From an archaeon (GTDB taxonomy: Archaea > Nanobdellota > Nanobdellia > Pacearchaeales > GW2011-AR1), in contig JABHWZ010000004.1 of NCBI GenBank assembly GCA_018657525.1, positions 26,245-90,244 of the forward strand: 64,000 nt of DNA, given 5' to 3'. The notes under the pieces were generated by a model. That model ran no database searches and had not been told where the DNA came from. It saw only the letters and a list, made by a program, of their open reading frames with translations. A program made the translations under genes and the position numbers. This document shows, piece by piece, positions 3,743 through 58,010 of this stretch. Numbering within the stretch: position 1 is the first letter of the stretch; every line of letters starts with the position of its first letter.

Positions 3743-4693
3743 TTATCTCTTCTCCACCAATTCCCTAAACCTTTTCTGTACTCTTTCTATTGGAGTTAAC
3801 CTCGGTTGTCCCTTTCTACGAAATGGAATACAAGTATGACGAAAATCATCAAACCATCCTCCTTTACCATAATCTCCCTTAGATTCAGCACCAGATGCGA
3901 GAGCTCCAACTCTTAACAGATTAAGAGTTCCATGATCAAATGGAGGTCCAGAAAAATTATCTCGAACATATTGCCCCATCATTAAATCAAGTCCATGTTC
4001 TTTTTTCCCAAATTCAAATGTTTTATCTATAATATATGTGACCACATCTTCAGGCAATGCAAACATCTCCCCAACATATTCTGGATGTTGTAATAGTGTT
4101 AAACGCAAAGGACATCTTTTAGCTTGCTCTATTGTCATATTTTCATTAAGTCCAATTAATTTCCCTTCCTTATCTTTTTCAAACCAGTCTTCTAATTGTC
4201 TGGAGTAAACTCCTTCACCACTTAAATTATCCCAAGAGATACCAGTATGAGAATAACTATTTGGAGCCCAATAATCATTTTTTAACTTAAATCCTGAACC
4301 TAAGTTTCCACGAGGATCGCTGTCTCCATCTCTTCTTCTTGCACCTGCGTCTTTGACTTTAGCAATTAAAGACAACGTGCGTTTTCCAATCTCCGGAAGC
4401 ATCCACCCATCAATTGTTCCACAACAAGGCAAGATAATTTTTAATTCTATTTCATTAGATTCTGGATTTTTTCTTGTAGCAATCATAGTTGAAACATCCC
4501 AATAACTTTCAGTCATTTCTGGCATCCCCCTATTTTGAATTGCTAAATATCTCATTCTTGCTTCAGAAGGAAATTCTCCTTCCATGTTTGAAGCATTAGA
4601 AATAAGAGAGAACATACTATCATCTCTATCAAGATTATGCACTTCAAGAGTTTCATTCCCTAACGCAATATCCCATTTTGCCTGTTCTGCCAT
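3743..4693 (-). CDS. hypothetical protein (316 aa)
   Basis: long ORF; conserved-looking patches PCCGTIDGW and GDSDPRGNLGSGF; family not recognised; adjacent to two tRNA genes. Confidence 0.55.
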   Translation of the reverse strand: MAEQAKWDIALGNETLEVHNLDRDDSMFSLISNASNMEGEFPSEARMRYLAIQNRGMPEMTESYWDVSTMIATRKNPESNEIELKIILPCCGTIDGWMLPEIGKRTLSLIAKVKDAGARRRDGDSDPRGNLGSGFKLKNDYWAPNSYSHTGISWDNLSGEGVYSRQLEDWFEKDKEGKLIGLNENMTIEQAKRCPLRLTLLQHPEYVGEMFALPEDVVTYIIDKTFEFGKKEHGLDLMMGQYVRDNFSGPPFDHGTLNLLRVGALASGAESKGDYGKGGWFDDFRHTCIPFRRKGQPRLTPIERVQKRFRELVEKR

Positions 4694-48960: not shown

Positions 48961-49314
48961 TTATCCCCGCCATCGATCAATTTTATTTTCAACTTTGGTA
49001 GACCAGCTTTGGATAATCTGTTTTATTTTTTTTCTAATCTGCATTTTTGAATTACATTCATAGGTAAAAATATACCCTCCATTTTGCAAATTCTTTTGAT
49101 GTCTAATTATAACTTCTTGCCCAAATAATTTTTTTACTGCTTTTTGAATTGTAGTTAAACCTAAATTTAATTTTTTAATCATCCCTATAGTGGTATGTTC
49201 TGTTTTGGAATTAGCTAAAAAATATTTAAAAATTTCAAATTCCTTTTTAGTCAGTCCTAATCCACATTTAATAATATCATCCAAATTAAACTTTTTACAC
49301 GCAAAGTTTATCAT
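48961..49314 (-). CDS. putative winged-helix transcriptional regulator
   Basis: segment [13 protein letters not shown]...[22 protein letters not shown] resembles a MarR/TrmB-type wHTH; 4-bp overlap with the thioredoxin gene. Confidence 0.4.
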
Positions 49315-49634
49315 CCTAGAATAGATTCAATTTTTTCTTTCAAAGCTTCTTTCGGCACAAATCCCACAATTCTATCAATTTCTTTCCCATCTTTAGTTAC
49401 AATCAGACAAGGGATCCCACTAACCTCAAATTGTGCAGGAAGATTCTCTTCCTCTTCGATATTAACCTTGACAAATTTTAGTTTCCCAACAAAGTCTTCA
49501 CTAAGTTCTTCAAAAACCGGGCCCATCATTTGACACGGACCACACCACGAAGCCCAGAAATCAATGATTACAGGAATTTCTGATTTTTCAACTTCCTCTT
49601 GGAAATTCAAACTTATTACTTTTTTTGTTGTCAT
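49311..49634 (-). CDS. trxA: thioredoxin (WCGPC)
   Basis: [18 protein letters not shown] active site; 107 aa. Confidence 0.85.
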
Positions 49635-49769
49635 TTTTGCTCCAATACTTCACAATTTAGAGTACCTAATTGCACTTTATAAGTACTTATATAATCAAGA
49701 AGTACTATTTAAACCTTTCTCAGATAAATTTTCCACAACTTTTATAATCTCCACCCTCCTTTCTTAAAT

Positions 49770-50522
49770 ATGAAAAAGAAAGTTTTACTTTTAGGTGCTT
49801 CTGGAAATATTGGAACCGGTTTCATAGAAAACTATTTGGAAAATCAAGAATATCAAAAAGATTACGATTTGATTATTGGAATTCATCAACACAATTCAAT
49901 AACAGACAAACTTAAAACAAGAAAGTTTTCACTAACAGATTTAGATTCTTTAAGAAAAGCATTCCAAGGAATTGATGTAATAATCAACTTAGCCGCCAAT
50001 CCACATCCCGAAGCTGATTTCGAAAATTTAATCGATTCCAATTTAATCGGAGCTTATAATGTTTTCCAAATTGCAAAAGAAAAAAAAGTTGCGAGAGTAA
50101 TTTTTGCAAGTAGTGTGCATGCTATAAAAGGTTATGATTTAGATTACAAAGTCAGAGCAGAGGACGCACCAAAACCTCTAACAATTTACGGAGCAACAAA
50201 AGCATTTGGCGAAGCACTTTGTTACACTTTTTCACAAAATTCAGAATTATCTTGCATTGCAATACGAATCGGAGCTTACGCAGCAAAAGAAAAAATGCAC
50301 AATGTTTGTTCTCAGAGAACAGATTATCATTACGTCGTAAGTCAAAAAGACCTTTCCCAATTAATCCATAAAACAATTATTGCTCCAGAAAAAATCAAAT
50401 ATACAATTCTAGCTGGAATATCAAACAATAAAAAACATAGTATGGATTTAGAACTCGCAAAAAAGTTAGTTAATTACAATCCTAAAGACGACGCTTATGC
50501 AATTTGTGAGAAGACTAGATAA
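49770..50522 (+). CDS. NAD(P)-dependent epimerase/dehydratase-family (SDR-like) protein
   Basis: Rossmann LLLGASGNIGTG at the N-terminus; YxxxK-like YGATK. Confidence 0.65.
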   Translation: MKKKVLLLGASGNIGTGFIENYLENQEYQKDYDLIIGIHQHNSITDKLKTRKFSLTDLDSLRKAFQGIDVIINLAANPHPEADFENLIDSNLIGAYNVFQIAKEKKVARVIFASSVHAIKGYDLDYKVRAEDAPKPLTIYGATKAFGEALCYTFSQNSELSCIAIRIGAYAAKEKMHNVCSQRTDYHYVVSQKDLSQLIHKTIIAPEKIKYTILAGISNNKKHSMDLELAKKLVNYNPKDDAYAICEKTR

Positions 50523-51384
50523 AATAATAATCATAAAATAATCTTTTATTGATATAAAATAATATCCCTAAGAGGCCAGTAAAAGACAATATTAATGCCA
50601 CCCAATTTAATGAATTCTCCCCGAGCTCTTTAATTATATTCCCAGTAATACTTGAATTAATTAAAAACATACTAAAACTCAATAATGCTATCCCAATACT
50701 CAAGCATAATTTTTGAGATAAGTCTTTGCTTTTTTGTTTGATTAATCCTCCACTTACATATTCTTCTCCTTCTTGCCTGTATTGTGAAAAACAATAATCC
50801 TCTGTAGGAACTATTTTAAATCTAAATTTTGCATCTCTCGAAAGGTCATCTAGCGCAGAATGCAACATACTTTGTTTACCTATCCTACATTTCGAAGTTT
50901 TAACCTTCCGCTTAAATCTCACAATTAGATTTCTTTTTCTATCTTCATCTATTCTGTCTGTTTCTTTTGATTTTTTCATAACCAAATAACCTGCTAACTG
51001 CCCTGAAGGTTTTTCTTTATATGCAATTACTGCAGTCTTCACTCTTGAATCTCTCAAAAAAGCATCAACATCCTCTGGACTTGGAGCAACAGTTATAGAT
51101 TTTTTGGAAGGCAAAAATCTATGAGTATGTATCAAAGTGTAAGGTTTTTTCCCGTGTCTTTCACTTAAGAATAGGGCCTTAAGTGGATGGACTTCCACTC
51201 CCCCTTCTTCAGGCAAGGCACTCACATCAACCGGTTCTTCCCCGGGAAATTTGATTAGGGCTTCTTCAGTTTTTGTATATCCACTCCCCTCAATAATCTC
51301 TCTAGGACTTTTCCTTTTTTTCATATTAAAAGATTTATTGAGATATTTAAATAATTTTGCTTTGGAAAAAGAAAAGTCCCCCAA
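50515..51384 (-). CDS. hypothetical protein with C-terminal transmembrane anchor
   Basis: 289-aa ORF; C-terminal TMs LCLSIGIALLSFSMFLI and WVALILSFTGLLGILFYI. Confidence 0.45.
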   Translation of the reverse strand: MGDFSFSKAKLFKYLNKSFNMKKRKSPREIIEGSGYTKTEEALIKFPGEEPVDVSALPEEGGVEVHPLKALFLSERHGKKPYTLIHTHRFLPSKKSITVAPSPEDVDAFLRDSRVKTAVIAYKEKPSGQLAGYLVMKKSKETDRIDEDRKRNLIVRFKRKVKTSKCRIGKQSMLHSALDDLSRDAKFRFKIVPTEDYCFSQYRQEGEEYVSGGLIKQKSKDLSQKLCLSIGIALLSFSMFLINSSITGNIIKELGENSLNWVALILSFTGLLGILFYINKRLFYDYYFI

Positions 51385-51415
51385 AATTTATAAACCATCC
51401 ACCCTTATTTTCAAT

Positions 51416-52159
51416 ATGGAAAAAGCAGTTCAGATAACTTTGATAATTTGTGGAACAATTTTATTCTTGGGATTAGTAGCTTTCTCAATAATTAGTCCTG
51501 CATTTCCACAAACTAATACTGTGACTGGAACAGGTGAAGCCTCAATAAAAGTTACTCCTGACATCGTTGGAGTTTACTTCAATGTAGAAACTTCTGGAAC
51601 AACAAGCAAAGAAGCAAAAGACGCAAACTCTGAAATTGTGGATGGTTTAATAACTGAATTACTAAAGCAAGGATTTGAAAGAAAACAAATTCAAACTCAA
51701 AATTTTAATATTTATGAAGATTATGATTGGACAAATGGGCAAAGAATTCCAAAAGGTTTCAAAGCAACACATTCAATTAAGGTAGAATTGTCTTCAGAAA
51801 ATTCTGAGAAAATAGGTGAAATAATCGACGCTGGAGTTGACGCAGGAGCAAGAATTAGTTACATAAATTTTGAGTTAAGCCAAGAACTTCAAAATACTCA
51901 TAAAGCAGAAGCAATGAAACTTGCTGCTCAAGATGCGAAAACAAAAGCAAACGCAATCGCAGAAGGGTTATCCGAAAAATTGGGGAACTTAGTTTCAACA
52001 TCAAGTAATGACTTTGATTATCAACCTTGGAGACTACATGAGGCAGTTGGTTCGGGGATATCTGAAGACGCTGAATTAGCAAAAGAAGCTTCAACAAATA
52101 TCCAACCTTCTGAAAGAGAAATATCTGCACGAGTTACAGCAGTTTTTAAATTAAAATAA
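51416..52159 (+). CDS. SIMPL/DUF541-domain secreted or membrane-anchored protein
   Basis: N-terminal signal/TM ITLIICGTILFLGLVAFS; body matches the SIMPL family (FERKQIQTQNFNIYEDYDW..., KLAAQDAKTKANAIAEGL); the track ORF is N-terminally over-extended, ATG at 51416 preferred. Confidence 0.65.
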   Translation: MEKAVQITLIICGTILFLGLVAFSIISPAFPQTNTVTGTGEASIKVTPDIVGVYFNVETSGTTSKEAKDANSEIVDGLITELLKQGFERKQIQTQNFNIYEDYDWTNGQRIPKGFKATHSIKVELSSENSEKIGEIIDAGVDAGARISYINFELSQELQNTHKAEAMKLAAQDAKTKANAIAEGLSEKLGNLVSTSSNDFDYQPWRLHEAVGSGISEDAELAKEASTNIQPSEREISARVTAVFKLK

Positions 52160-52195
52160 AAATTTAAAAAATTATTTAATTTATGAATCAGTTAT

Positions 52196-52411
52196 TTACC
52201 TACATCCACAACTTCCACTGCTAACTGCTCCACATGTTGCTCTTCCACAATTGTTTTCAAGTGTGCAACTATTTCCACAAGTCGTTCCGCAACTAAGCGC
52301 ATCAGTTTGTTCAGTGTCAGTTGATGAATCAGTAGTAACCGCATTAATTGTCGTGATTCCAGCAAAAACTAAAACCAACGCAATAACTCCTAATGTTATC
52401 CATAGCTTCAT
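52196..52411 (-). CDS. secreted Cys-rich small peptide precursor (71 aa; signal peptide plus 8-Cys C-terminal core)
   Basis: N-terminal Sec-like signal MKLWITLGVIALVLVFAGITTINA; Thr/Asp-rich linker; C-terminal core SCGTTCGNSCTLENNCGRATCGAVSSGSCGCR with 8 Cys in 32 residues. Confidence 0.55.
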   Translation of the reverse strand: MKLWITLGVIALVLVFAGITTINAVTTDSSTDTEQTDALSCGTTCGNSCTLENNCGRATCGAVSSGSCGCR

Positions 52412-52489
52412 ATTTATACCTCCAATTTAATTGAAATAATAAAAAAATAATTTTATATAATCGGTTCGCTGAAACTAGTTACATTTTAT

Positions 52490-52582
52490 TTAAGCACAAC
52501 AAAATTATTCATCGTGTCAAGAAAACTTCAATATATCTTAATGCTTTGATTAATTTTGCTTAAGCACAACAAAATTATTCAT
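52490..52582. repeat. perfect 23-bp direct repeat (two copies, 70 bp start-to-start) upstream of the Cys-rich peptide gene
   Basis: ttaagcacaacaaaattattcat at 52490-52512 and 52560-52582; the second copy lies within the last codons of the regulator gene at 52550-53023. Confidence 0.8.
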
Positions 52583-53023
52583 TCCTCTTCGCTTTCTTTC
52601 TACAATTTCTCGTGCTTCTAGCTTATCTAAAAGCCGAGTCATTCCAACTTTTCCAATTCCCAATTCTTCCATCAATGTTTTCTGAAACATTCCCCCTTCC
52701 TTCTGAAGCATTTCAATAGCTTGTTTCTCCCGCACATTTAATCCCTTCAATTCAATTGGCTTCTTTTTCTCTTTTACTATTTTATATTTAATTTTCTCTC
52801 GCGGTTTTGTATTCATTATAACTAACCCAATAATTAAAATAACTGCAACAATACTTAGACTTATCCAAGTTTGAATATTAGCATTTGTGTACATTCCACA
52901 CGTGGGTCCATGCGAACAACTTATATCTAGATTTGCCTTTATCAAATTATTAAATATCCAAACCATGGCTCCCATTACCCCTGAAATTCCCACAATTAAC
53001 CAACCGACATTTTTATTTTCCAT
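52550..53023 (-). CDS. membrane-anchored winged-helix (MarR/ArsR-like) transcriptional regulator
   Basis: two TM helices (WLIVGISGVMGAMVWIF and WISLSIVAVILIIGLVIM) followed by wHTH QKTLMEELGIGKVGMTRLLDKLEAREIVERKRRGMNNFVVL. Confidence 0.6.
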   Translation of the reverse strand: MENKNVGWLIVGISGVMGAMVWIFNNLIKANLDISCSHGPTCGMYTNANIQTWISLSIVAVILIIGLVIMNTKPREKIKYKIVKEKKKPIELKGLNVREKQAIEMLQKEGGMFQKTLMEELGIGKVGMTRLLDKLEAREIVERKRRGMNNFVVLKQN

Positions 53024-53405
53024 TTATTTTCCCCTCATAATTTTTAATTGCCTTCCCAAGTGCTTCAATTCCTAAAATAGAACAATGAACTTTTATTCTG
53101 GGCATTCCCCCCAAAGCTTTCACAATATCCTCTTTTTTTATTTTCTTTGCCTGTTCTAAAGTTTTACCTTTTGCTAATTCACAAACAACATCTGAAGCTG
53201 CTATCGCAGCTCCACATCCAAAAGTCTTAAATCCAATATCCTTGATCACTTTTGTCTTTTTATCTAACTTGAATTCTAAATGCATAACATCCCCGCACGC
53301 AACATTTCCAACTTCTCCAACAGCGTCGGGATTTTTTACATCTTTTACAAATTTTGGATTTTGAAATCTTTTTAAAAGTTCTTTGGTGTAATTTAATTGT
53401 ATCAT
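53013..53405 (-). CDS. iscU: Fe-S cluster assembly scaffold IscU/NifU-like
   Basis: three conserved Cys in GNVACGDV, FGCGAAIA and HCSILG. Confidence 0.8.
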   Translation of the reverse strand: MIQLNYTKELLKRFQNPKFVKDVKNPDAVGEVGNVACGDVMHLEFKLDKKTKVIKDIGFKTFGCGAAIAASDVVCELAKGKTLEQAKKIKKEDIVKALGGMPRIKVHCSILGIEALGKAIKNYEGKINGK

Positions 53406-53456
53406 TTTAAATTATGCCAAAGAAAATATTCATATTTACTTTAGTATAGGTGTTAT

Positions 53457-54335
53457 TCATTTTGCATGAATGTATTTTAATTTACTTAGTTCTTGAACAT
53501 ACTTTTTCCTGACTTCTTCATTTTCTTCAATTCTACAATTTCCCCAGGTTCCTGGACTTCCCCAAGTTTTATCTTTTATCCAATCCCAATTAATATAACA
53601 AAAAGCCTTGATTTGCTTATGTTTTCCAATCCATTCAAAATATGGTTTAAACCAGTTATCCCAACTTTTTTCTCCATCTAAAACTCCAACTTCTGCAGCA
53701 GTTGATTCTCCAATCATCACCGGTTTTTTATGTTTTTTAGCTAATGTTAAAAAATCTTCTACAGGCTTATATTTTCCTGTCAAGTGCCTAGCAAAGAACA
53801 CATCTATCCCAAACCAATCCACATAATCATCTCCGGGATAATATTTTTCAACAGGATCTGTTCCATTAAATGGGCAAGCACACCAAACAGTAGCAATATT
53901 TTCAATTTTAGCTTTTCTAAATTTATCTGTGATATATTGCCACGCCTCCACAAAATTATCTGAATCATATTTTCCTTTTTTATCAAATTCATATCCTATC
54001 CTAATAAATGTTGACCTTTTCATTTTTTGAATCATTCTAAAAAATTTATCCAAATCTTCATCATACTTTCCAGCCAACACCTTAGAGGTTTGATCTTTTC
54101 CATCAGCATCTAATAATTTTAATCCAATTTGCAACATCAGATCTGGAAATTGTTTTAATTCATTTCTAATTTTTTTTATCCATTGTTGAATTTTATGAAT
54201 TTTTGCATAAGTCATATATATGGCTGGTTTAAATTCTTCAACGGAATCAGAATATTTTTTAAATTGTTCTAAACTTTGTCCTGCGCCATGGATTACTTTA
54301 TTCCCTTTTGGCTCAAATTTTTGATTAAAATTCAT
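53457..54335 (-). CDS. glycoside-hydrolase-like TIM-barrel protein (GH26/GH113-like)
   Basis: segments WCACPFNG, YYPGDDYVDWFGIDVF and MIGESTAAE resemble GH26-type mannanase blocks; assignment tentative. Confidence 0.45.
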   Translation of the reverse strand: MNFNQKFEPKGNKVIHGAGQSLEQFKKYSDSVEEFKPAIYMTYAKIHKIQQWIKKIRNELKQFPDLMLQIGLKLLDADGKDQTSKVLAGKYDEDLDKFFRMIQKMKRSTFIRIGYEFDKKGKYDSDNFVEAWQYITDKFRKAKIENIATVWCACPFNGTDPVEKYYPGDDYVDWFGIDVFFARHLTGKYKPVEDFLTLAKKHKKPVMIGESTAAEVGVLDGEKSWDNWFKPYFEWIGKHKQIKAFCYINWDWIKDKTWGSPGTWGNCRIEENEEVRKKYVQELSKLKYIHAK

Positions 54336-54730
54336 TTTATTTTCAATGGTAAAAAAGGTTTAATTGCTTTCCGCAGTTGTGGATACGTCCATTTCTTTTG
54401 GAACGAAATATAATCAAGTTCTTTTAAATGAGCTAGTGCTTCAGGGATTAATCTTTTTGAATCTGTAACATTAATTTCAATAAATTTGTTTTTTCCAATA
54501 TTAAATTTATTTTGCAAAACATCTTTTAACCTTTTTCTGACAGTGATAATTATATCTGCCCAATCAACATCTTCTTGTGAAATAGGATTCCACTTCATAT
54601 TTGGATCTTCAAAACCTTCGGCTCCACCATACCTTGTTTTATATCCTTTTCTCCCAAGATATTCTGCAAGATACTTACTCCGATTAAGTCCTTTAGAACA
54701 TACAGCCAATACTTTAATTTTTTCTTTCAC
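54332..54730 (-). CDS. low-molecular-weight protein-tyrosine phosphatase / ArsC-like arsenate reductase family
   Basis: N-terminal CX5R P-loop VLAVCSKGLNRSKYLAEYL; 132 aa. Confidence 0.6.
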   Translation of the reverse strand: MKEKIKVLAVCSKGLNRSKYLAEYLGRKGYKTRYGGAEGFEDPNMKWNPISQEDVDWADIIITVRKRLKDVLQNKFNIGKNKFIEINVTDSKRLIPEALAHLKELDYISFQKKWTYPQLRKAIKPFLPLKIK

Positions 54731-54996
54731 TCCAGTGCCTCCAACTTTTTCATCAATTCATTAATTTCTTTTTCAGAAAACCCGTGTGCCTGACAGCCCT
54801 GTTCAATGGATTCCATCTGCGACATCGGGCATCCAAAACAATGCATTCCAGCTTCCAATAAAACTTCTGCCGACTCTGGAATTTTATCAAGCAGTTCTGA
54901 AAAAGTCATGTCTTTTGTAATCTTTGCCCCAGCATTCCGCAATTTGGGGTACACTGAGCAGTGTTGTTTTTTCATTTCAATTTTTCTGGTTTCCAA
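54727..54996 (-). CDS. DUF1858-like redox-disulfide small protein
   Basis: TFSELLDKIPESAEVLLEAGMHCFGCPMSQMESIEQGCQAHG matches the DUF1858 pattern including the paired Cys. Confidence 0.5.
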   Translation of the reverse strand: METRKIEMKKQHCSVYPKLRNAGAKITKDMTFSELLDKIPESAEVLLEAGMHCFGCPMSQMESIEQGCQAHGFSEKEINELMKKLEALE

Positions 54997-55364
54997 TTTA
55001 ATTCTTTCATTCTCTTTCTAGCAAAATCTTCCATCCCCTGTTTAACAACCAGCACATCTAATTTATGGAGGATATTGTTAATTTGAATTTTACCTCCACG
55101 ATAAAGTTTCCACCAATCTCTCTCAGTGTTTAGGAATTTCCAATCCTTGGGAATAGAATCTTCAGGAACAATCGCTACTAAATCAATATCACTCCCATCA
55201 TGATTTCTGTAGGAAGTTTCATATTTACCAAATTCTCCAGTCGTAGAGCTTCCGACTAAGTATGCTTCTTTAACTTCGGGAACTAATTGTGATTTAACAA
55301 ATTTAATAATTCTTTGATGGACTTCCTCCTGATTCGAATAAATTATCTTTTTTGGTTTAGTCAT
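54972..55364 (-). CDS. nucleotidyltransferase-domain protein (Pol-beta-like NTase)
   Basis: GS-x-(9-13)-Dh[DE]h NTase motif: [31 protein letters not shown]. Confidence 0.6.
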
Positions 55365-56100
55365 TTTTACTTAGTTCCAATTTTAAACTTTCTAATTTAA
55401 TTCCTGAATATTGCACCTTACTTATCTCTTTATCTTCCCCAAGAATTTTAATTTTAAATCCCTCTTTTTTTATCAAATCTAAATAATCTTCCTTTTGTAA
55501 TGCTCCCGCCACACATCCAGAAATTAAATCTGGATTATTTTTTTGTTCTTTTGTTAGTTCTCCTAATAGAACTATATCTGAAACATACATCTGTCCATTA
55601 TTCTTCAGAACTCTTTTTGCTTCTTGAAAGACTTTTGATTTATCTACTGAAAGATTAATCACACAATTACTGATTATTAAATTAACACTTTCATCTCCTA
55701 ATGGAAGATTTTCTATTTCTCCAAGTTTAAATTCAACATTTTGATAATTATTTTTTGCAGCATTTTCCCTTGCCCTTTTCACCATTTCCGGCGTCATATC
55801 AACCCCAATAACTTTGCCTTTCTTTCCAACTTTCTTGGAAGCAAGAAAACAATCAAAACCTGCTCCACTTCCTAAATCTAGAACAATATCTCCCTCTTTA
55901 ATTTGAGCAAGCGCAATAGGATTTCCACAACCTAACCCAAGATTTCCTGGGGCACCTAACTCATCTTCTGAGTAACCGATATTTCTTGCAATATTTTCTT
56001 GTTCATCTTTTTTGCAACTACAAGTACAACATGAGCCTTTATTTGTAGCAATATTTGTATAATTCTTTTTTACTATTTTTTTTATTTCTTCAGTTTGCAT
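55357..56100 (-). CDS. arsM: arsenite S-adenosylmethionine methyltransferase-like (ArsM family)
   Basis: SAM motif [13 protein letters not shown]; three ArsM-type Cys contexts GCGNP, SNCVINL and ISGCVAG. Confidence 0.65.
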
Positions 56101-57267
56101 TTAAATGTCCCCCACCAACGGACTTATCCGTCGCAGTTTTTCAACTGTTTTTTTTAATTGCTCAATTGCAAAATCAATTTCTTCTTTTGTTGTATATTTA
56201 CTGATTGAAATTCTAATGGATGAATTTGCTTCCAAAGGAGTTTTACCAATAGCTAATAAAACATGACTCGGGTCTAAATTTTTTGACGAGCAAGCTGAAC
56301 CAGTTGAAGTAAAAATTCCAGCTGAATTTAAAAAACTACCAATTGCTTCCCCTTCAATGTTATTAAAACATAAATTAATATTATTACAAAGCCTATCTTC
56401 TCTAGATGGACCATTCAAACTAACATTTGAAATTTCATTAGTAATTTTTTCAATAAAGTAATCTCTTAATTTTTTAATCCTCTTGACATCTCGATTTGAA
56501 GCAACTTGAACTGCTTTCCCAAAACCAACAATTCCCGGAACATTTTCTGTTGAACTTCTCAATTTAAATTCCTGCCCCCCACCATGCAATAAAGGGGTAA
56601 TTTTAATCCCCTCCCGAATATATAAAGCACCAACTCCCTTCGGACCATGAATCTTGTGTGCATTAATTGTCATCAAATCTAAATTCATTTTTTTAATTTT
56701 AATAGGAACTTTTGTAAAACTCTGACAAGCATCTGTATGAAACAAAACATTTTTTTCTTGACAAATTTTTCCTATTTCTTGTAAATGTTGAATAGTCCCA
56801 ATTTCATTGTTCCCGTGAATCACTGAAACTAAAATTGTTTTTTCTGTAATAGCATCTGCAACATCTTGAGGATTTACAAAGCCGGTTGCATCAACATCCA
56901 AATAAGTAACCTTGCCTCCTTGAGTTACAACCCATTTACATGCATTCAAAATACAATCGTGTTCAATTTTTGTAGTTATAATATGGTTCTTCCCACTTTT
57001 GATTGTCTGCTCTTTTAAAAATAATCCTTTAATCACAAAATTATTAGCTTCTGTTCCACTTCCGGTAAAAATAATATCTTTAAATTTTGCTCCAATTTCT
57101 CGAGCGATTATTTCCCGCGCCTCATCCAATCCTCTCTTAGCTTCCTGTCCCTTAAAATGTAGTGACGACGGATTACCATAATTTTCAGTTAAATAACTTT
57201 GCATTGCTTTAGCCACTTTTTCGTCAACCTTTGTTGTTGCCGCATTGTCAAGATATATTTCTTTCAT
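56101..57267 (-). CDS. cysteine desulfurase (NifS/IscS, class V aminotransferase)
   Basis: N-terminus IYLDNAATTKVDEKV; PLP lysine context INAHKIHGPKGVGALY; active-site Cys loop STGSACSS. Confidence 0.85.
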   Translation of the reverse strand: MKEIYLDNAATTKVDEKVAKAMQSYLTENYGNPSSLHFKGQEAKRGLDEAREIIAREIGAKFKDIIFTGSGTEANNFVIKGLFLKEQTIKSGKNHIITTKIEHDCILNACKWVVTQGGKVTYLDVDATGFVNPQDVADAITEKTILVSVIHGNNEIGTIQHLQEIGKICQEKNVLFHTDACQSFTKVPIKIKKMNLDLMTINAHKIHGPKGVGALYIREGIKITPLLHGGGQEFKLRSSTENVPGIVGFGKAVQVASNRDVKRIKKLRDYFIEKITNEISNVSLNGPSREDRLCNNINLCFNNIEGEAIGSFLNSAGIFTSTGSACSSKNLDPSHVLLAIGKTPLEANSSIRISISKYTTKEEIDFAIEQLKKTVEKLRRISPLVGDI

Positions 57268-57641
57268 TTTAATTTAACCTTTAAATTTTTCAAAATATCT
57301 AAAGTTTGACTCAAATCTTTTTCTTTAACTAATAAATGATCAGTAGAATATGAAGATACAACAAAGATACTTATTCCTGCTTTAGCTAACGCACTGGATA
57401 TTTTAGCGATAAAGCCAACTAATTCAAAATCAAGAACTATCTCAAAAGTAATCAGTTTCCAGTCTTTTTCAATTTTGATAATATCTTTTTTGTTAATTTC
57501 ACCCTCCTCAATAATTACCGTAATCTCTTTCTTATCTTTAATATTTGCAAAAGCTTCGGGACAGATTTTTTTAGATTTAACTACCCAAAATTTTTCATCC
57601 CAAATATGAATCATTTCCTTTTTCATTTCCCCCCTCCACAA
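57264..57641 (-). CDS. small ACT-like domain protein
   Basis: 125 aa; beta-alpha-beta pattern LVGFIAKISSALAKAGISIFVVSSYSTDHLLV typical of ACT/DUF ligand-binding folds. Confidence 0.4.
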   Translation of the reverse strand: MWRGEMKKEMIHIWDEKFWVVKSKKICPEAFANIKDKKEITVIIEEGEINKKDIIKIEKDWKLITFEIVLDFELVGFIAKISSALAKAGISIFVVSSYSTDHLLVKEKDLSQTLDILKNLKVKLK

Positions 57642-57934
57642 AATTTACAATTTCCAGAACAATATGTTTTCGAATGTTTATCAATCAATTTTAAAATAGG
57701 TAAAATAGTTTTTTTATTTAAAGAATAAATTCTCTGTTTCCCCTTCTGTTTAAAATCCACAATATTGCAACTTTTCAACGAGGCCAATGCATGAGAGACT
57801 TTGCTCTGCTCAACTTTTAATTCTCTAGAAATTTCCCCCACACTTCGCGGTTTCTCTTTTAATTGAGAAACAATTTCAACTCTAAGTGGATTTGCTAAAT
57901 TACTAAAAAATACATGATATGTTGATTTTAACAT
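57623..57934 (-). CDS. arsR: ArsR/SmtB-family metalloregulator with C-terminal Cys cluster
   Basis: wHTH LANPLRVEIVSQLKEKPRSVGEISRELKVEQSKVSHALASL; C-terminal CSGNCKFCGGG. Confidence 0.75.
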   Translation of the reverse strand: MLKSTYHVFFSNLANPLRVEIVSQLKEKPRSVGEISRELKVEQSKVSHALASLKSCNIVDFKQKGKQRIYSLNKKTILPILKLIDKHSKTYCSGNCKFCGGGK

Positions 57935-57985
57935 TGTGTTATTTTAATTTTTAATTTAAATAATGCGGTGAAATGTGCGAAATAT

Positions 57986-58010
57986 TTCATATGAAACTAT
58001 ATTCATATGA
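57986..58010. promoter_or_regulatory. candidate ArsR operator: two copies of palindromic TTCATATGAA
   Basis: ttcatatgaa at 57986-57995 and ttcatatga at 58002-58010, about 50-75 bp upstream of the arsR start codon (minus strand). Confidence 0.45.

Follow-up and report, generated by a model that had tools for sequence, protein, structure and literature searches.

A membrane-anchored winged-helix regulator, a palindrome-promoter, and an exported-looking Cys-rich peptide in a Pacearchaeales genome

Which conserved DNA element connects a small gene for a Cys-rich, exported-looking peptide with the membrane-anchored regulator gene beside it, and what might such a pair do for an archaeal cell? The question is raised by a stretch of 64,000 nucleotides (nt; hereafter, the window) from an archaeon of the order Pacearchaeales (GTDB lineage GW2011-AR1; assembly GCA_018657525.1, contig JABHWZ010000004.1, positions 26,245 to 90,244 of the forward strand). 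A reading made from the sequence alone (the sequence-only reading) had proposed that a secreted eight-Cys peptide is encoded there next to a sensor-regulator and that two perfect 23-bp repeats upstream of the peptide gene are plausible binding sites of this regulator. We found a conserved module composed of the regulator, a palindrome-promoter, and a cargo gene, the cargo in the window being a 7-Cys peptide. Comparison across loci indicates that the conserved cis element is a 14-bp palindrome with its promoter, not the 23-mer. On the sequence evidence, we consider it modestly probable that this module of Woese-, Pace-, and Nanoarchaeota (DPANN) contains a one-component sensor in the membrane that detects a thiophilic metal, probably Cu, or linked thiol stress, its cargo being an exported, Cys-rich peptide that binds metal. 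Gene regulation is almost unexplored in DPANN archaea, which either have not been cultivated or are difficult to grow; the analysis yields a set that can be tested in vitro, consisting of a regulator family, a probable 14-bp palindrome operator, and an exported Cys-rich regulon mostly without family annotation.

Regulator, palindrome-promoter, and peptide

The features of the module are as follows (aa, amino acids; TM, transmembrane; wHTH, winged helix-turn-helix; AF2, AlphaFold2; BRE, transcription factor B recognition element).

52196..52411, minus strand: gene for the 71-aa Cys-rich, exported-looking peptide (translation, family searches)
52340-52411, minus strand: signal-peptide-like segment of the peptide, residues 1-24 (sequence, family alignment)
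52295-52339, minus strand: acidic Thr/Ser linker of the peptide, residues 25-39 (sequence)
52199-52294, minus strand: 7-Cys core of the peptide, residues 40-71 (sequence)
52409-52411, minus strand: ATG of the peptide gene
52418..52423, minus strand: Shine-Dalgarno-like GGAGGT, 6 nt 5' of the peptide ATG (read from the sequence)
52452..52459, minus strand: TATA box in the promoter of the peptide gene, TATATAAA (by its place in the 48-nt motif model; consensus TATAAtaa)
52464..52469, minus strand: BRE-like block GCGAAC between palindrome and TATA box (family consensus CCAAAG)
52470..52483, no strand assigned: 14-bp near-palindrome TGTAACTAGTTTCA, candidate operator of the regulator (family consensus TGAAACTAGTTTCA; the only motif-model match in the window)
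52550..53023, minus strand: gene for the 157-aa membrane-anchored winged-helix regulator (Pfam, AF2, Foldseek, alignment)
Residues 4-70 of the regulator, minus strand: TM hairpin (AF2, alignment)
52892-52918, minus strand: hairpin tip C36-x-H38-G39-x2-C42-x-M44 (alignment)
52559-52744, minus strand: wHTH of the regulator, residues about 94-155 (Pfam, AF2)

The open reading frame (ORF) at 52196-52411 encodes the 71-aa protein MKLWITLGVIALVLVFAGITTINAVTTDSSTDTEQTDALSCGTTCGNSCTLENNCGRATCGAVSSGSCGCR, in agreement with the sequence-only reading. Its core, however, holds seven cysteines and not eight (7/32 residues; 22%); it is Gly/Ser-rich and has no aromatic residues. The Cys spacing is C-x3-C-x3-C-x5-C-x4-C-x7-C-x-C, which agrees with the earlier pattern in all intervals but one (x7 in place of x6). 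A word-indexed search returned nine relatives at 46-58% identity, and a profile search covering 1.84 billion representatives extended the family to at least 176 clusters at 50% identity (E <= 1e-3), including 71 at E <= 1e-10. Nearly all of these matches are 64-110 aa long and are aligned over their full length.

Members of the peptide family start with MK or MN, followed by ~20 hydrophobic residues. A small-x-small motif (mostly V-x-A) lies past the hydrophobic region in 127/132 relatives, a pattern that is also compatible with an uncleaved anchor. The peptide in the window starts with MK, and its hydrophobic region ends near residue 23. An acidic linker rich in Ser/Thr, variable and with a median of 16 residues, leads to a core with the consensus C-x2-C-x-G-x-C-T-x3-N-C-G-x3-C-G-A-x2-G-G-x-C-G-C-G. 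The family-level spacing, C-x2/3-C-x3-C-x5-C-x4-C-x7-C-x-C, is kept in >130 relatives, which supports the earlier proposal of a secreted Cys-rich peptide. Among 133 single-module members, 101 have seven cysteines and 30 have six; peptides with two tandem modules and 13-14 cysteines also belong to the family. The peptide matched no Pfam or NCBIfam model, with NCBIfam precursor models empty even at E <= 10, and a sequence search of the PDB with the family profile found nothing. AF2 modeled an N-terminal helix and gave the core a predicted local distance difference test (pLDDT) value of <50. Family conservation argues that the peptide is a real, exported-looking Cys-rich product of an unannotated family.

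The neighboring gene at 52550..53023 had been described as a two-TM wHTH regulator, and this description stands. The protein scores above the Pfam cutoffs of MarR_2 (PF12802; 33.3 bits versus 27) and DUF7343 (PF24034; 31.3 versus 27.6). In its AF2 model (mean pLDDT, 80.5), helices 4-35 and 43-70 form a hairpin (pLDDT of about 80-95), a Lys-rich linker (residues 71-96) is disordered, and helices 97-109, 114-121, and 125-137 form a winged helix (residues 97-154) with two wing strands, the last of which is the conserved FVVL. Only the wHTH portion was matched by Foldseek, with MarR and ArsR/SmtB domains as hits (root-mean-square deviation of 1.4-2.4 A over about 60-66 residues). The dimerization helices of MarR are not present in the AF2 model, in which the protein terminates in the wing; thus, the regulator carries a MarR-type wHTH but is not a canonical MarR protein. 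A PDB sequence search with the regulator family profile found nothing. Proteins identical to those at this locus are already deposited as hypothetical proteins (locus tags HN832_04035 and HN832_04040).

The regulator family includes at least 1,547 relatives (>1,500 sequence clusters). Among the 120 best-scoring relatives, most are 155-163 aa long (range, 142-176), and wherever an organism is named, it belongs to the Woesearchaeota, Pacearchaeota, or Nanoarchaeota or is an unclassified archaeal metagenome-assembled genome. An alignment of 30 members revealed that C36, H38, G39, C42, and M44 are invariant between the two hydrophobic helices and that ERKRRGMNNxVVLK is an almost invariant C-terminus. 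The extracytoplasmic Cys pair pointed out earlier is therefore part of an invariant C-x-H-G-x2-C-x-M motif. Because a Lys-rich segment follows the second TM helix, the positive-inside rule suggests that the tip faces outward and the wHTH lies in the cytoplasm. In one locus (L077:708-1190), a second membrane-anchored wHTH paralogue of 161 aa is located directly 3' of the regulator and has the loop motif GCFNDPSC instead; this difference may be a sign that hairpin-tip sensors form a broader superfamily.

In having a membrane anchor, a putative extracytoplasmic sensing element, and a presumably cytoplasmic winged helix in one polypeptide, the regulator resembles the transmembrane transcription regulators (TTRs); among these, CadC and ToxR use Cys pairs in the periplasm for sensing. 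It conforms to the generic description of a TTR (i.e., a DNA-binding domain and TM regions in one protein) and departs from the ToxR/CadC pattern in three respects: the order is reversed, with an N-terminal two-helix hairpin and a C-terminal wHTH; the wHTH is of the MarR/DUF7343 type, not the OmpR type; and there is no folded outer domain, the outer part being only a hairpin tip of ~7 residues. Unlike the known TTRs, the family appears to be confined to DPANN archaea. Known TTRs include ToxR, CadC, and TcpP in bacteria and ArnR/ArnR1 in Sulfolobus (PMC10269533; PMC6396743), and the only studied archaeal TTRs named in one survey regulate motility and pili (PMC10269533). A text search of that survey found no mention of DPANN, MarR, Woesearchaeota, Nanoarchaeota, or copper (PMC10269533). 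A literature search found no papers on DUF7343, and the regulator-peptide system is not described in the titles and abstract openings of the papers returned by a search on DPANN copper handling and transmembrane transcriptional regulators. Judging from these comparisons, the membrane-regulator architecture, the operator with its regulon, and the exported Cys-rich peptide family appear to be novel, while the class of transmembrane one-component regulators is already recognized.

The regulator adjoins the peptide gene in all loci retrieved via peptide homologs, usually directly upstream; in locus L002 the regulator is 3' of the peptide gene, and in one lineage a gene intervenes. When loci were retrieved via the regulator, a peptide homolog (E < 1e-4) was present in 29/80 species-level genome loci, and the peptide start was mostly located 50-130 nt past the regulator stop codon. 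This conserved adjacency supports the earlier suggestion that the regulator is the partner of the peptide. In L002 (5900-6769), the inverted order is palindrome-promoter, peptide, and regulator, so the regulator would be cotranscribed with its cargo there and hence autoregulated.

Alignment of the regions downstream of the regulator genes revealed a shared arrangement, namely TGAAACTAGTTTCA, nCCAAAG, a gap of ~4 nt, TATAAT(A), and a T-rich stretch. A 48-nt weight matrix derived from 63 instances (the motif model) has a single match of >=12 bits in the window, at 52442-52489 on the minus strand (40.4 bits), immediately 5' of the peptide gene. The motif occurs at >=22 bits in 69/83 non-redundant regulator loci, with 74/74 instances on the strand of the regulator, and the TGA of the palindrome is often the regulator's own stop codon. 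In a regulator-independent test, metagenome contigs were scanned for the pattern TGAAACTAGTTTCNCCAAAG, giving 67 evaluable instances (i.e., those with >=500 nt of upstream sequence). A regulator stop codon was found within 700 nt upstream in 30 of these, including 21 in which it was within 30 nt, and the other instances precede the same kinds of cargo genes. The palindrome is centered ~21 nt 5' of the TATA center, and archaeal activators commonly bind at about such a distance upstream of the TATA box. Its position directly upstream of the BRE and TATA elements would suit activation.

The 23-nt repeat and the end of the regulator gene

If the palindrome is the conserved element, the perfect repeats next to it call for another explanation. 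They are arranged as follows.

52483..52512, minus strand: repeat copy 1, a duplicate of the regulator 3' end, reading ATG AAT AAT TTT GTT GTG CTT AAA TAA (MNNFVVLK-stop) and abutting the palindrome
52513..52549, minus strand: spacer from the regulator stop to copy 1, containing the T-tract GTTTTCTT
52553-52582, minus strand: repeat copy 2, the last ten regulator codons (MNNFVVLKQN), with the stop codon at 52550-52552 just beyond

The 23-mer TTAAGCACAACAAAATTATTCAT is present in exactly two copies in the window (52490-52512 and 52560-52582), the second of which lies inside the 3' end of the regulator gene, as had been reported. The chance expectation is low, with zero matches in 100 shuffles even when 3 mismatches were allowed. 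In full, the repeated unit is 30 nt long, its copies (52483-52512 and 52553-52582) differing by 2 mismatches, and what had been viewed as a free-standing promoter repeat is a copy of the coding end of the regulator. Equivalent in-frame duplicates of the form MNNxVVL(K/R)x-stop, located 31-76 nt past the real stop, were found in 6/82 loci (i.e., the window, L064, L044, L068, L012, and L060). Each duplicate matches the wobble bases of its own gene, which points to local duplication or gene conversion rather than to a shared operator consensus. For these reasons (presence in 6/82 loci only and copying of own wobble positions), we rejected the 23/30-mer as a conserved operator, and the role of conserved binding site proposed for the repeats passes to the adjacent palindrome as a candidate. 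A simple tandem duplication of a 70-nt unit was also rejected, the flanks of the two copies being unrelated.

The palindrome follows immediately after the duplicate in three loci (the window, L068, and L060), an arrangement that mirrors the usual fusion of stop codon and palindrome. Among the roughly 40 palindrome instances that lie away from a regulator, just 3-4 have a remnant of the gene end; since most regulator-distant palindromes are without it, the remnant is not needed by the promoter. The repeat may be a fossil of an ancestral junction between gene end and operator. Copy 1 would then represent the old end, still attached to the operator, and a new regulator end with a T-rich spacer of ~40 nt would have come between the regulator and the operator. 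Between L064 and L044, two species-level genomes (4475-4550 in each), the spacer and duplicate are 81% identical, compared with 73% for the regulator gene and 60% for its third codon positions, as if the duplicate were subject to selection or gene conversion. The duplicate may have some function (e.g., as a terminator context or an upstream promoter element), and the T-tract of the spacer could act as an archaeal terminator.

Cargo genes and the possible signal

Which signal the regulator might respond to can be approached through the genes that its relatives place behind the same promoter. The first two non-peptide genes 3' of the regulator were tallied by Pfam in 77 loci, giving 116 downstream genes. 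The most frequent families were Cupredoxin_1 (19/116), HMA (16/116), DsbD_2 (13/116), VTT (5/116), Thioredoxin_4/DSBA (3/116), Copper-bind (3/116), E1-E2 ATPase of the P type (2/116), and DUF411 (2/116). A typical large cargo protein is a fusion of HMA, DsbD_2, and cupredoxin domains. In L031 (4514-8146) and L050 (4582-8195), this fusion is followed by a P-type ATPase with CPC, YN-x4-P, and M-x2-SS motifs, which we take to be the Cu(I) P1B-1 signature (CopA-like); nowhere else in the regulon is the link to copper as clear as in this pairing of fusion and ATPase. The presence of HMA, cupredoxin, DsbD_2, and DUF411 proteins, and at times CopA, behind the same promoter points to metal or thiol handling.

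Other motif-driven genes encode a CopZ-like HMA protein, a DUF411 protein, TRASH-like zinc ribbons, and DsbA-like and DoxX-like proteins. There are also Cys-rich exported families without a Pfam match, such as "GLIPHIGC" membrane proteins, "CEYCCG...GMVGGC" proteins, and "IPCxGH" proteins. Three or more cysteines in the last 25 residues were found in 40/69 motif-driven genes versus 54/725 other genes (p = 4e-23), and 13/36 non-peptide cargo proteins of >120 aa have a Gly/Cys-rich C-terminal tail, typically ...GGCGCGG. Homology of the peptide core to the tails of the HMA-DsbD_2-cupredoxin proteins was considered and rejected, a core-only hidden Markov model (HMM) being silent on these tails.

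Two of the unannotated families can be described further. The CEYCCG proteins (about 210-230 aa) are exported, have a ...ISCEYCCGA...ACGCA... center and a C-terminal ...GMVGGC, and are among the commonest genes behind the palindrome-promoter (L074:754-1383, L049:4576-5214, L087:4564-5205, and about 21 metagenome loci within L092-L171); proteins of 54-78 aa ending in ...SSGMVGGC are often encoded nearby. The motif-driven GLIPHIGC membrane proteins (L033:4547-5134, L061:4536-5132, L019:5316-6008, and L046:5153-5911) have an HMA-like "IPCPGHAPLI" domain and often a Gly/Cys-rich tail.

A mechanism can be proposed in which the regulator would act as a transmembrane one-component regulator, its hairpin holding the Cys-x-His-Gly-x2-Cys-x-Met tip at the outer membrane face and its Lys-rich linker joining the hairpin to the cytoplasmic MarR/DUF7343-type winged helix. 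The tip would respond to a thiophilic metal, with Cu(I) as the likeliest, or to a thiol-oxidizing stress closely tied to it, and the winged helix, presumably as a dimer, would bind the 14-bp palindrome and control the promoter of the next gene. The Sec-type signal peptide would probably be cleaved after INA, releasing a peptide of about 47 aa whose 7-Cys, Gly/Ser-rich core may bind or buffer metal outside the cell in the manner of an exported metallothionein.

Cu(I) is suggested as the likely signal by the copper-specific cargo and by the ligand set of the tip, which resembles the Cys-His-Cys Cu(I) site of CsoR. As in CsoR, ArsR/SmtB, and the archaeal CopR/CopT-CopM(TRASH)-CopA locus, a Cys/His ligand set goes with a wHTH-type regulator, and as with cytoplasmic copper sensors, genes for CopA, HMA, and small metal-binding proteins adjoin the regulator in relatives. 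Unlike in CsoR and CopR, the putative sensing site would lie outside the cell or at the membrane instead of in the cytoplasm, and there is no sequence homology. The peptide core is comparable to metallothioneins in being Cys-dense and Gly/Ser-rich, with no fold predicted without metal, but the peptide appears to be exported rather than cytosolic and has no detectable homology to them. By analogy, the closest functional counterpart of an exported Cys-containing, copper-related peptide seems to be the bufferins, which are described as Sec-exported, Cys-containing, copper-chelating peptides that are ribosomally synthesized and then posttranslationally modified (RiPPs) (PMC11626156). The shared traits are small size, apparent export, cysteines, a copper-stress context, and the occurrence of one- or two-module versions (PMC11626156). 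Bufferins, however, are bacterial peptides of the DUF2282 and BUF_6/12Cys families that depend on an MNIO enzyme and its DUF2063 partner (PMC11626156); no such feature was found within about 6 kb of the module or among the most frequent neighbor families of the related loci.

Several observations weigh against the metal-sensing interpretation. The peptide is carried by only about a third of the regulator loci, and position is the sole link between the regulator and its operator. The palindrome in the window is imperfect (12/14 positions symmetric), and the BRE-like block next to it is off consensus. The unconfident AF2 core leaves the modeled peptide without a defined fold or metal site. The core-only HMM recovered only the two-module peptides and missed the Cys/Gly tails found in larger cargo proteins; thus, the resemblance between peptide and tails is compositional and is not demonstrable homology. 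Finally, many neighbors are redox or Fe-S proteins and not copper proteins (i.e., NifU_N, ferric-reductase-like, hemerythrin, DsbA, glutaredoxin, and desulfoferrodoxin-like proteins).

These neighbors would suit a module for extracytoplasmic thiol/disulfide (oxidative) stress without any metal, in which the Cys pair of the tip would serve as a redox switch, as in CadC and ToxR, and the peptide would act either as a thiol buffer that is sacrificed or as a structural peptide with disulfide bonds. Genes for DsbA-like, thioredoxin-like, glutaredoxin, DoxX-like, and desulfoferrodoxin-like proteins lie behind or beside the same promoter, those for NifU_N, hemerythrin, and ferric-reductase-like proteins lie upstream of the regulator, and thioredoxin and thioredoxin reductase genes are located about 3 kb off in the window. 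However, the commonest cargo domains are metal-specific (19 Cupredoxin_1, 16 HMA, 3 Copper-bind, and 2 DUF411 domains, along with two CopA-type ATPases), and the tip pairs its two Cys with an invariant His and Met, residues that typically serve as metal ligands and for which a disulfide switch has no need. Copper stress induces Dsb/Scs-type genes in bacteria; the metal and thiol readings therefore overlap, and Dsb-type neighbors fit both. We regard a purely thiol-based module as rather unlikely, although it is the main rival.

Closer to the sequence-only reading is the view that the peptide is a disulfide-stabilized signaling or antimicrobial peptide, which is secreted and then sensed by the regulator as an autoinducer, with the 23-bp repeats as binding sites. 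An exported-looking peptide does adjoin a membrane sensor-regulator, the repeat is statistically real, and the duplicate with its spacer is more conserved between L064 and L044 than third codon positions are. This view is nevertheless improbable, given that the duplicate is absent from 76/82 loci, that the copies present follow the codon choices of their own genomes, and that the repeat is not palindromic, whereas the conserved partner element of the regulator is a palindrome. In addition, the exposed sensor loop of ~7 residues is invariant while the peptides vary, and behind the same promoter HMA, cupredoxin, and DsbD_2 cargo can take the place of the peptide, an exchange that speaks for the peptide as an output rather than as the ligand of the sensor. 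The Cys/Ser/Thr-rich core behind a signal peptide, as in bufferins, and the variants with 6/7 and 13/14 cysteines (the latter in two modules) might instead indicate a RiPP precursor that undergoes modification by MNIO, like the bufferins, or by radical-SAM or lanthipeptide enzymes, with Cys, Ser, and Thr altered before or after export. This appears very improbable: MNIO/DUF692, DUF2063, radical-SAM, and Lan enzymes were not found within about 6 kb on either side in the window, no maturase ranks within the top 25 families, by frequency, for the 184 neighbor genes at about 77 loci, and the NCBIfam precursor models gave no match at the permissive threshold mentioned above.

Should the preferred copper or thiophilic-metal reading be true, the module would represent the first archaeal case in which a one-component regulator senses metal at the outer face of the membrane, together with a new class of exported metal-buffering peptides, and would provide functional hints for several "hypothetical" families abundant in groundwater and sediment metagenomes. 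A more far-reaching proposal, which we offer tentatively as a possibility, is that of a DPANN-wide extracytoplasmic copper/thiol-stress regulon. It would be governed by an undescribed membrane MarR-type sensor whose operator is fused to its stop codon, and its Cys-rich cargo, including the 7-Cys "exo-metallothionein" and unannotated families, would have been swapped repeatedly; the duplicated gene ends (6/82 loci) would either be scars left by this exchange or have a function in it.

Neighboring genes in the window

The module is flanked by two genes.

53013..53405, minus strand: NifU_N/IscU-like Fe-S scaffold gene (Pfam, 139 bits), with an 11-nt overlap with the regulator start
51416..52159, plus strand: SIMPL/DUF541 gene, convergent with the peptide gene (Pfam, 153.6 bits)

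Across loci, the commonest gene immediately 5' of the regulator encodes NifU_N (15/68 loci), followed by ferric-reductase-like, hemerythrin, and FTR1 genes. The SIMPL/DUF541 assignment of the sequence-only reading holds for the identity of the gene but not for a conserved association; with 1/116 downstream genes and absence from most peptide loci, it was rejected as a part of the module.

The module sits within a codirectional run of minus-strand genes for thiol, Fe-S, and metalloid functions (about 49300-58000). Its members encode an ArsR-type helix-turn-helix protein, ACT_7, a cysteine desulfurase (Aminotran_5), DUF1858, NifU_N, thioredoxin, a methyltransferase with an N-terminal Cys-rich stretch, a DnaD_N-like wHTH protein, and thioredoxin reductase. 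Between the SIMPL and epimerase genes, a 269-aa ORF with a hydrophobic C-terminus and no family match (50515-51324, minus strand) is a gene call in the public contig. Rfam and tandem-repeat scans of the window found only three tRNAs (Ser-GCT, Met-CAT, and Lys-TTT) and trivial AT-rich repeats. The G+C content of the window is 30-36%, and the minus strand holds most genes. GC skew (the excess of G over C) is strongly negative over nearly the whole window (1-64000; cumulative, -6.7), which is consistent with the location of almost all genes on the minus strand.

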